Shown in pieces: positions 57,134 through 58,770 of a DNA stretch of 64,000 bases (positions are counted from its first letter, which is position 1; the number at the start of each line of letters is the position of its first letter). The notes under the pieces are model-generated. The model saw nothing but the letters and a program-made list of their open reading frames with translations, ran no database searches and was not told where the DNA came from. The stretch comes from Escherichia coli (lineage in GTDB: Bacteria > Pseudomonadota > Gammaproteobacteria > Enterobacterales > Enterobacteriaceae). The stretch lies in NCBI RefSeq assembly GCF_030013595.1, contig NZ_CP122768.1; one strand, written 5' to 3'. The position numbers and the translations under genes were made by a program.

Positions 57134-57496
57134 TTTCAAATGTAGAGATTATTTTATCGATATATCATGGGGTTATGTTATTCAGCATCACTGTTCAGGA
57201 GGCTCAATAGCGGGGTACTATACCATAACAACAGGAAGCGCCTGTCTCATTGCAAAAGAAAATTGAGATCCTCTCAAGGCATGAAGCTCTCACGAAGTGA
57301 TTGAAATAATCTTATTAGATGTTAGCGTTGTGAAAAGCAATGATAAACAATACAGTTTCGACGATAAATAAAAAATCACACATTAAACTCCGGTGATATC
57401 TCTCCCTGCTAATAGCACTGATAGAGAAAAAAAGAACCCAATAAGCATTGGGTTCTTTTATGTAATACCTTCCATACCATCGAAGAACTTCACATA

Positions 57497-58453
57497 TTAT
57501 TTTACTAGTTCAATACCAAATAGATCATAAATTGAATTAGAGATATCGTTTGGAATTTGAATCAATTCCGTTGAATCTGGGTCACACGATTGTACGAAGT
57601 CATTTAATTTCTGCGCCGCACCATGCATTTTTGTAACGTCTTTTAGGACTCGTTTTCCTTCGTCTTCCTGACGTTTCATATCAGTTACAATGTCATTGAA
57701 ATCCAGTTTCCCTGCGACTGCCAGATTTTTCATCTCCTTCAGATTTTTTTTCATCTCTTGTTGAGATAACGTTTTCACCTGATCTGTTATGTATTTTTCG
57801 CAATACTCATCAATATCCACTGCAGCTACCAGATCTGCTAATGCACTACCATATGAACATGAAATTAAAAGGGAAGCCAAGGGTTTTAAGCGAATATCGT
57901 CATATTGATGATATGCATTTTCTAAATTTATAAAACCATCACCTAAAGTTTGTAGATGTAACGAAGCTATAGATTCATCATCAATAGATTTTTCATAAAA
58001 TAGTTGAATAGTTGATGGGAGTCCATTCGGGCTTGCTACATCAAAAGTACATCTGTCTATGAGACTTACTGTCTGATGTTCTACTTTATTACAGACAAAA
58101 CTAATCGCATAATGAAAAATCGCCCTGTCTACATATAAAGCGATATAATCACGATCGCCTAATTGCTCTTGAGAGCAGTCATCAATACACTTATCGACCC
58201 ACAGTTTGAGTTCATTTATTCTGCTGATTAACGACACATTTTTGATACTTGCTGTCCATAAATTAAGGGTGATTTTTTGAATAAATAAATCTATTTTTGC
58301 AATAATCACATCGCGATTATTCGCAGTTGCATAATCAACCGATTTATTATACATATCCTTTATTTTTTCTTTGCTCGCATCTTTAATTTCGTATTGATTT
58401 GAATAGAGTGTATTATTGAAGAATTCTGTTGCACTTGAAATTATACCTGACAT
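57497..58453 (-). CDS. AT-rich 318 aa protein of unknown function (position of K-12 yjbL/yjbM)
   Basis: Single uninterrupted ORF in a very AT-rich segment between dusA and zur; no recognisable motifs. Confidence 0.6.
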   Translation of the reverse strand: MSGIISSATEFFNNTLYSNQYEIKDASKEKIKDMYNKSVDYATANNRDVIIAKIDLFIQKITLNLWTASIKNVSLISRINELKLWVDKCIDDCSQEQLGDRDYIALYVDRAIFHYAISFVCNKVEHQTVSLIDRCTFDVASPNGLPSTIQLFYEKSIDDESIASLHLQTLGDGFINLENAYHQYDDIRLKPLASLLISCSYGSALADLVAAVDIDEYCEKYITDQVKTLSQQEMKKNLKEMKNLAVAGKLDFNDIVTDMKRQEDEGKRVLKDVTKMHGAAQKLNDFVQSCDPDSTELIQIPNDISNSIYDLFGIELVK

Positions 58454-58770
58454 GATTCATCCACCTTTTTTGTCGTACCGTGTCCTCCTTATAAGCGTTT
58501 TGGGAACTGGTCACTATCAAAAATCGCTCATAATTTCTGAACTACAGGTATGCGATCAAACCCAGCTAAATAAATAGCGAGTTAACTTGAAGCAATTTAT
58601 TTAAAAATGAATTATTAATTATTATCGTGTTGATAATGGTACTACCAGGCAACACAACCCCTTACGTACAAAACAGAAAATCAACATTACGGCAACAATA
58701 AGGGTTCTCGGTGTTTTTCCTGGAACATGGTAAAGTAAGGACATTCTTAACCCCCACTTTGAGGTGCCCG

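Follow-up and report, generated by a model that had tools for sequence, protein, structure and literature searches.

How an intact, very AT-rich gene came to lie between dusA and zur in Escherichia coli, and what keeps it open there, is the question raised by a 64,000-nucleotide stretch of E. coli DNA (contig NZ_CP122768.1 of assembly GCF_030013595.1; hereafter the window). The gene is an open reading frame (ORF) of 318 codons belonging to the family DUF2713. The explanation that accounts best for the locus as a whole, with a probability of about 0.7 in our estimation, is that the window holds the decayed remnant of an element that targeted dusA, and that this remnant carries a selected DUF2713 allele. 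The ORF itself is a full-length, selectively maintained allele of an orphan family restricted to E. coli. The features on which this reading is built are the following, with sequence type 131 (ST131), of phylogroup B2, as the reference for the unoccupied site.

57497..58453, minus strand: DUF2713-family ORF, intact class A allele (ORF list and translation; Pfam PF10897)
57046..58703, no strand: derived AT-rich segment of 1,658 bp, 35% GC (local alignments against the ST131 locus L002)
57046..57133, minus strand: element-type ("surrogate") dusA 5′ end, the first 88 nt of the coding sequence (about 80% nucleotide identity to a prophage-supplied end)
57030..57055, no strand: dusA attachment core of 26 nt, TCGAGCATTGGTGCAACGCTAAACCG on the plus strand (the stretch that reads alike in window-type and prophage-supplied 5′ ends)

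Identity of the gene and its split form in K-12

The ORF starts with ATG and contains zero internal stops at a GC content of 0.336. The five alternative frames over the same interval hold 18 to 32 stops each, and none of 20,000 composition-matched shuffles of the ORF was open (mean 25 stops, minimum 8). The 1,658-bp segment has a GC content of 0.350 against 0.527 in its flanks; along the sequence, GC stays at 0.32-0.39 from about 57100 to 58750 and is about 0.53 outside. An earlier note on this DNA, made by reading the sequence, had described an uninterrupted and very AT-rich ORF unlike its neighbours between dusA and zur, and both the contrast in composition and the identity of the neighbours proved correct.

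Pfam DUF2713 (PF10897) matched residues 84-315 over model positions 1-232 of 235 (i-Evalue 2.6e-67). The earlier note had recognised no domain. This no longer holds for a profile search, which finds DUF2713 at E = 2.6e-67, and it still holds for function, as DUF2713 is a family of unknown function. In E. coli HCP5S3_I2, the Prokaryotic Genome Annotation Pipeline (PGAP) names a locus of 99.9% identity "DUF2713 family protein" (WP_112024401.1), and the window gene is already annotated in RefSeq under that name. No homology to a housekeeping protein was found.

In a K-12-lineage genome (O16:H48), PGAP calls one 986-nt "DUF2713 domain-containing protein, frameshifted" between dusA and zur. Its zero frame encodes 84 residues before a stop, and its -1 frame is open for 248 codons, giving 235 residues from the first methionine; we take the K-12 proteins YjbL and YjbM to be 84 and 235 residues long. 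The lesion is a run of seven A (A7) in CGT AAA AAA ATG TGT TTT TAA, where intact alleles have either eight (A8) or a G followed by A7. The exact frameshift sequence is also present in a strain labelled K-12 (H79). The suggestion that yjbL and yjbM might be halves of the gene seen here is thus borne out by the PGAP call, the A7 lesion and the sizes of the two products, and alignment to the K-12 alleles revealed no single ORF in K-12. K-12 yjbL and yjbM are one DUF2713 gene, split by a one-base contraction from A8 to A7.

The K-12 pair and the window gene share the dusA-zur locus, the orientation and the family, and the Pfam span of residues 84-315 corresponds to the YjbM part. The window copy differs in being one uninterrupted ORF of 318 residues and in belonging to another allele class: its protein is 52% identical to the repaired K-12-lineage sequence, with a synonymous divergence (dS) of 0.83, and it has A5 where K-12 has the A7 of the frameshift site.

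The junction in dusA

Comparison with ST131 defined the ends of the segment. Homology between the two stops at 57045, 88 nt inside dusA, and resumes at 58704 upstream of zur. ST131 holds an unrelated 133 bp in place of the 1,658 bp of the window, and the similarity between these two fillers is at chance level only. One scan of species-representative genomes gave three matching genomes, of which E. albertii NBRC 107761 and the divergent "E. coli" E69 have an empty site and a short DusA N-terminus, and Escherichia sp. MOD1-EC7003 has the ST131-type region upstream of zur. Because ST131, E. albertii and E69 are all empty, the empty state is ancestral and the segment derived. In these three the DusA protein begins MP(A/E)ES(H/Q)T(V/A)Y(P/S)AYRFSI and is 14 codons shorter at its start than that of the window. 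The ST131 N-terminus, MPAESHTVYPAYRFSI, joins the residues APMLDW, and the window DusA arrives at the same APMLDW from a different, unrelated N-terminus. The MOD1-EC7003 contig (L023), which ends before dusA, also has at 665-1201 an ORF of 178 residues without an NCBIfam match, upstream of its zur promoter region, which is of the ST131 type; this different cargo is an indication that the dusA-zur hotspot received a further element.

The origin of the window-type dusA start was indicated by strain 319, in which a 10.9-kb prophage remnant lies in dusA (locus L024, NZ_CP018241.1 5080000-5129999, positions 640-12534). The remnant encodes PrtN, DinI, three DUF1076 proteins (DUF1076 being, as we take it, the NleG effector domain) and a tyrosine integrase (L024 10311-11408). 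This prophage provides dusA with the 5′ end MHDNHEAQKINQTSVMPEKTGVYWNSRFSV, which at the DNA level is about 80% identical to the 88-nt end of the window; the homology of the two ends stops 3 nt upstream of the ATG. On its other side, adjoining the DUF2713 gene, a dusA 5′ remnant of the window type is left, with the same translation as the start of the window's dusA. Imperfect direct repeats of 117 nt (83% identical) flank the prophage; they include the duplicated dusA 5′ ends and contain the attachment core. The prophage junction is at about 57030 in window coordinates. The DUF2713 allele of strain 319 has a site haplotype that is also found in O157:H7, and espX5 was observed about 20 kb from the prophage remnant. 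The arrangement in strain 319 is that of the model for dusA-associated integrases (DAI; Farrugia et al. 2015, PMC4482086).

The breakpoint between empty and occupied sites, 57045|57046, falls within the attachment core at 57030..57055. The window therefore resembles DAI islands and prophages in two respects, a junction at the attachment core in the 5′ part of dusA and a replacement 5′ end about 80% identical to the one supplied by a prophage. It is unlike them in having a single gene and in lacking an integrase, attL/attR repeats and a leftover original dusA 5′ end. A search for direct repeats in the window gave chance-level short repeats only. As neither integrase nor attachment repeat remains, the segment is a decayed island, a fixed scar with one gene, and a relic rather than an island. 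The earlier note had proposed an old acquired gene instead of an active island, having seen no integrase or attachment-site repeat; the empty sites elsewhere, the breakpoint in the attachment core and the element-type dusA 5′ end agree with that proposal, and neither an integrase nor a repeat matching the dusA 5′ end has come to light between dusA and zur.

By this reading, a dusA-targeting element would have integrated in dusA in an ancestor of the lineages outside phylogroup B2. It would then have lost its integrase, its other cargo and the old dusA 5′ remnant, leaving behind the replacement dusA 5′ end, presumably with a dusA promoter, and one cargo gene.

Allele classes, history of the segment and the poly-A tract

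Of the 5,426 complete genomes of E. coli that we surveyed, about 4,248 carry the segment, and about 1,178 (~22%), such as ST131, match the zur end only. The gene occurs in three allele classes. Class A, the type of the window, was found in 157 genomes when >=95% identity is required and in 138 by an exact match to an internal 44-mer, and is the rarest, at about 3% of the 5,426 genomes. Class B, a form of 334 residues, was found in 206. Class C includes 655 genomes with the in-frame G+A7 site, O157:H7 among them, and 3,250 genomes with a "HARKK" haplotype, where the exact A7 frameshift (2,236 genomes) and the one-base-longer, in-frame A8 (about 1,000) both occur. The A7 frameshift is thus present in about 41% of all genomes and in roughly half of the carriers, at one shared site.

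Protein identity between the three classes is 49-64% (51-64% for the window allele against the others), and the flanking genes are 97.5-99% identical between strains. By Nei-Gojobori estimates, dS between classes is 0.49-0.84, nonsynonymous divergence (dN) 0.23-0.38 and dN/dS 0.38-0.59; within class C, dS is about 0.1. For dusA and zur among gene-carrying E. coli, dS is 0.04-0.09 and dN is <=0.003, with dS rising to 0.13-0.20 against ST131 and 0.56-0.57 against E. albertii. The dN of DUF2713 therefore exceeds that of the genes beside it by a factor of tens to hundreds, and DUF2713 varies between strains far more than its neighbours do. If rates were normal, the classes would be as old as the split between E. 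coli and E. albertii, or older. The divergence is limited to the coding sequence, in which identity between classes is 65-73%: it is 92-95% in the dusA-side intergenic stretch (57134-57496), 94-96% on the zur side (58454..58703) and 100% in the adjacent 100-200 nt of dusA and zur. Over the first 40 codons, classes A and B have a dS of 0, against 0.5-1.0 over the remainder, which indicates an intragenic mosaic.

These values bear on how the segment arrived, and several of our results weigh against the account of a decayed dusA element. The window has no integrase ORF in the interval from dusA to zur, and neither a second att-like copy nor an ST131-type dusA 5′ remnant was found in 57046-58800, where scores stayed at the level of shuffles. 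The window protein had no match in 50,697 phage records (INPHARED), and its distant relatives were not found in 72,556 plasmid records (PLSDB). Integrase-mediated arrival is inferred solely from the position of the junction and the type of the dusA 5′ end, and the DUF2713 gene may have come later than the element instead of as its cargo. Further, dS between classes equals or exceeds the E. coli-E. albertii value, although neither E. albertii nor B2 has the gene. The divergence of the classes therefore probably took place elsewhere and was followed by their import, which a single integration leaves unexplained.

An alternative is that the whole stretch from the dusA 5′ end through DUF2713 to zur was exchanged by homologous recombination for DNA from one or more diverged Escherichia-like donors, the crossovers lying in dusA and upstream of zur, and that the allele classes were imported likewise. 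The exchange of 133 bp for 1,658 bp is a replacement without duplication of the attachment site, the classes are at least as divergent as E. coli and E. albertii while their spacers are 92-96% identical, and the mosaic of classes A and B is itself intragenic recombination. As an account of the original arrival we nevertheless regard it as doubtful, since the left breakpoint is inside the 26-nt attachment core and not at another point of dusA, where similarity is high, the start of dusA belongs to the type that a prophage supplies, and no donor lineage with the same arrangement was found in the one species-representative scan with its three matching genomes. For the later history, homologous replacement probably explains the spread of the allele classes, and the depth of the classes speaks for a later replacement of alleles, with the conserved spacers serving homologous recombination. 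A decayed dusA element, followed by such exchange of alleles, is the history that we prefer.

The conserved spacers frame a single transcription unit, with these features.

57430..57459, minus strand: intrinsic terminator, 13-bp stem and T run (terminator scan; 37 nt past the ORF stop)
57134..57429, no strand: AT-rich spacer from the terminator to the dusA start, inside the conserved stretch 57134-57496
58454..58703, no strand: DUF2713 upstream region in the divergent spacer shared with zur (class-to-class identity 94-96%)

As the terminator follows the ORF stop, the DUF2713 gene is a monocistronic unit upstream of dusA, which begins in the divergent spacer shared with zur and is ended by its own terminator. 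The spacer 57134..57429 presumably holds the dusA promoter, and the region 58454..58703 presumably holds that of the DUF2713 gene. In K-12, genomic SELEX (systematic evolution of ligands by exponential enrichment) placed RpoD promoters for zur and yjbLM in the spacer between zur and yjbL (PMC3946193). A simple consensus promoter scan of 58454..58703 gave no site on the minus strand. An Rfam scan near the terminator gave sub-threshold matches only, among them a weak AgrB match at 57383-57460 (23.9 bits against a gathering score of 40, E = 0.36), which is most likely a chance match to the terminator stem-loop. Beyond these spacers, dusA (56096..57133, minus strand) is accompanied by dnaB, qor and pspG, and zur (from 58771, plus strand) by yjbJ, dinF, lexA and dgkA. 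The AT-rich spacers have also received insertion sequences (IS): IS1 lies in the dusA-side spacer of strains PCP06102 (L028 2201-2443) and PCP06101 (H14) and in the zur-side spacer of strain 1EC213 (L031 1-478). Near their N-terminus, class C alleles have varying copy numbers of a 10-residue repeat (e.g. DATKDKLDNI), encoded by a 30-nt unit that was seen in the first ~150 nt of the coding sequence in L005, L025-L027, L029 and L032; six alleles of O157 or K-12 type (L001, L006-L009 and L028) have fewer copies than the 338-residue form.

The frequent absence and disruption of the gene raise the possibility that it is a functionless relic drifting to loss, of which the window copy is intact by chance so far. 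About 22% of genomes lack it and about 41% have the A7 frameshift, further frameshifts occur in L025 and L033, IS1 has inserted beside it in some strains, and no phenotype is known. We consider this explanation distinctly unlikely. The ORF has remained open across dS of 0.5-0.84 in DNA of 34% GC, where random sequence has a mean of 25 stops. Its dN/dS is 0.4-0.56 rather than 1, the core helix IIAKIDLFIQ.IT.NLW is kept out to relatives at 18-25% identity, and in nine of ten sampled frameshifted alleles the downstream frame of about 247 codons has no further lesion. An open frame at such a composition, together with a dN/dS below 1, shows that the coding capacity has been selected.

The state of the frameshift site in the window was read from two tracts.

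58235..58249, minus strand: counterpart of the K-12 frameshift tract, where the window reads AGTATCAAAAATGTG (A5) (allele alignment and coordinates)
57744..57751, minus strand: the window allele's own in-frame A8 tract, codons 235-237 (MKKN) (homopolymer scan)

With A5 at the K-12 site, the window allele is not prone to slippage there and is stably "on". Around its own A8 tract, all 138 matching genomes have the exact 44-mer, and none has a length variant.

In class C, the A7/A8 pattern allows recurrent slippage, reversibility or partial rescue. The run might therefore be a contingency switch (phase variation) or be bypassed by transcriptional or ribosomal slippage, so that "pseudogenes" of the K-12 type sometimes give full-length protein. 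A7 and A8 share one 42-nt haplotype, and A7 occurs on at least three backgrounds; the A7 allele L008 and the A8 allele L028 (PCP06102) differ at 0.2% of sites, and the K-12 type differs from the 338-residue A8 allele by 1.7%. The tract is the sole lesion in nine of ten sampled A7 alleles, in which the downstream frame of about 247-248 codons is otherwise intact, and a -1 shift on the A run brings the frame back. We judge either possibility, switch or bypass, very improbable all the same: the A8 run of class A is invariant in its 138 genomes, so that A8 alone is not highly unstable, and recombination could carry the tract between backgrounds. The idea does not apply to the window copy, with its A5. 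Programmed -1 frameshifting was rejected at the K-12 site, where the zero-frame sequence T AAA AAA departs from the canonical X XXY YYZ heptamer. A search for a stimulatory structure in the 90 nt beginning with the K-12 tract found folding no better than in shuffles (z = -0.71). A second frameshift was found in one sampled A7 allele and in one of five sampled A8 alleles. These two alleles, of strains AMSHJX01 (L025, coding sequence 955-1976) and SW071618 (L033, coding sequence 785-1775), have the second lesion in addition to whatever state the poly-A tract is in; that of L025 falls on a short run of G (GGGGG) some 800 nt from the start of the gene. They are independent decay events.

The predicted protein, its distant relatives and possible functions

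The structure of the window protein was modelled by AlphaFold2 with 21 family members aligned, after a run with six close alleles had proved too poor (mean per-residue confidence, pLDDT, 52.8). The model (pLDDT 73.7, predicted template-modelling score 0.70) has a mainly helical body, a three-strand sheet at 135-166 and a confident C-terminal helical bundle; residues 1-44 are below a pLDDT of 50. No signal peptide or membrane segment is evident in the sequence or the model, by inspection and not by a dedicated predictor. The product is predicted to be a soluble, mostly helical protein of about 36 kDa. Foldseek against AFDB50 matched only DUF2713 proteins of E. coli and Shigella and gave no match in BFVD, and the PDB contained no match either by sequence profile or by fold, so that the modelled fold is, for now, an orphan. 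Among family databases, NCBIfam gave nothing but a sub-threshold match to a sporulation lipoprotein, PADLOC-DB v2 gave 0 families at E<=1, and PHROGs gave families of unknown function only, with a strong match to phrog_29005 at residues 73-315, about the Pfam span. A Pfam scan of all 21 family members, including the 400-residue forms, detected no additional domain.

A hidden Markov model search of 1.84 billion representative proteins gave 52 matches at E <=0.001, the majority of them pieces of the E. coli gene. About ten are distant relatives of full length (18-25% identity), which comprise a group of about 300 residues, a group of 400-426 residues with an extra N-terminal region and one form of 336 residues. 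They share the core helix (I/V)(I/V)AK(I/L)D.F(I/L)...IT.(N/G).W and a second motif, D(R/K).(I/V)F.(F/Y), and residues K53, W66 and F113 (window-protein numbering) are invariant across them. All the named ones come from E. coli isolates, and none was found in the 5,426 complete genomes in either near or distant search mode. They lie on contigs of 1-6 kb, the longer of which carry transposase genes of the ISL3, IS66, mutator or Rpn type.

On one metagenomic contig (L011), a distant relative of 397 residues (P0030) adjoins a KfrA gene and a gene with a SopD/SopD2-like N-terminus and PipB/PipB2-like pentapeptide repeats. The latter gene encodes 311 residues, with a SopD2-like N-terminus followed by ADLRH pentapeptide repeats of the EspX/PipB2 type. 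The contig also contains a group II intron fragment and an IS3 region that are 97-98% identical to E. coli copies (features at 2430-3540 and 3842-4777), and it matches known records only through the intron and the IS fragment.

This neighbourhood is one reason to ask whether DUF2713 proteins are substrates or effectors of a type III secretion system, either that of the locus of enterocyte effacement (LEE) or E. coli type III secretion system 2 (ETT2), with an N-terminal secretion signal and an allelic diversity driven by host pressure. In almost all members, 11-18 of the first 25 residues are S/T/N/Q/I/G, with few charges and few leucines, and the low model confidence over residues 1-44 may mean disorder; the gene is AT-rich and acquired, distant relatives sit on short IS-flanked contigs of E. 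coli isolates, and O157-type genomes retain an in-frame allele. We consider this function unlikely. Neither NCBIfam, Pfam nor PHROG gave homology to an effector family, no fold in the PDB or AFDB matched one, and an adjacent chaperone is absent. The gene is present in the K-12 lineage and many non-clinical isolates, half of its carriers are frameshifted, and the E. albertii type strain does not have it. The effector-type neighbour comes from one contig, and N-terminal composition, which in the window protein gives S/T/N/Q/I/P/G at 14 of the first 25 positions, is a weak predictor of a secretion signal. A link to ETT2 through the common absence of gene and system from B2 seems doubtful, as E. 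albertii has no copy at the dusA-zur locus. Acquired AT-rich orphan effector genes are often pseudogenised in non-pathogenic E. coli. DUF2713 shares with EspX-family effector genes its restriction to a lineage, its AT-richness and an N-terminus rich in small polar residues, and one distant relative adjoins an EspX-type gene. In sequence and fold it is unlike known effectors, and the likeness is one of genomic style.

The gene might instead be a single-gene anti-phage or exclusion determinant from a prophage or island, engaged in an arms race with phages. It lies at a known integration hotspot as a relic of a mobile element, it is polymorphic for presence and has deep classes confined to its coding sequence, and its product is predicted to be soluble without housekeeping homology. 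This seems quite improbable to us, since no PADLOC model matched, the orphan fold includes no nuclease, nucleoside triphosphatase (NTPase), TIR, Sir2 or other effector domain, the protein is absent from the 50,697 phage genomes, and the match phrog_29005 carries no annotated function.

Our best guess is a fast-evolving conflict or interaction protein. The gene may be dispensable in many niches, because about 1,178 of the 5,426 genomes lack it and 2,236 have the A7 frameshift, and the protein may act through direct contact with a fast-evolving partner from a phage, the host or a competitor; these two steps we put forward together, and tentatively. A fuller version would have a conflict protein with a new fold, serving as a substrate of the LEE or ETT2 secretion system or as a phage-interaction factor. 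Its three ancient classes would be kept by balancing or frequency-dependent selection, with A7/A8 toggling or partial rescue and with the K-12 "pseudogene" as the switched-off state; this whole combination has a low probability. The loci fliC and those of the O-antigen are E. coli loci under long-term diversifying or balancing selection. DUF2713 resembles them in its deep within-species classes, conserved flanks and intragenic mosaics, and is unlike them in that its sequence and model, as inspected here, have no evident signal peptide or membrane segment.

Few publications touch on the gene. A literature search revealed no functional study of yjbL/yjbM and no paper combining yjbM and H-NS, and nearly all literature on "yjbM" concerns an unrelated (p)ppGpp synthetase of B. 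subtilis. The only K-12 report found is of yjbM M47I in laboratory evolution, a near-neutral mutation to which, by itself, about 1% of the growth-rate gain was due (PMC2784333); another paper counts yjbL-yjbM among young operons (PMC12218254). In papers on plasmids of Klebsiella and Enterobacter, "yjbJ-yjbK-yjbL-yjbM" is named next to blaSHV-12 (PMC7319535, PMC10076803). With two distant relatives from DUF2713 as queries, tblastn revealed no genuine plasmid copy; its two matches were both E. coli records of 4.9 Mb. The plasmid names "yjbJ-yjbM" are probably, we assume, a slip for ygbJ-ygbM (including ygbL/ygbM), which fits the absence of family members from plasmids.

The feature is thus largely an ordinary one, an uncharacterised accessory gene in an old integration scar, with unusual population genetics. 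What the present work contributes is the evidence for the scar in dusA, the three-class structure with its census, the A7/A8 polymorphism and the lack of any fold relative. For the organism, the annotation is tidied in that yjbL and yjbM become one gene, the arrival of the gene would date to after the split of B2, or earlier with a loss in B2, and the 14-residue-longer and different DusA N-terminus of non-B2 E. coli would be explained. The less ordinary part is that a cytoplasmic-looking orphan has classes apparently as old as the split between E. coli and E. albertii, within chromosomal surroundings that hardly vary. It may turn out to be one among many uncharacterised accessory genes; the discovery of a partner or phenotype would make it a compact example of a non-surface protein under long-term diversifying selection, and of a new fold.

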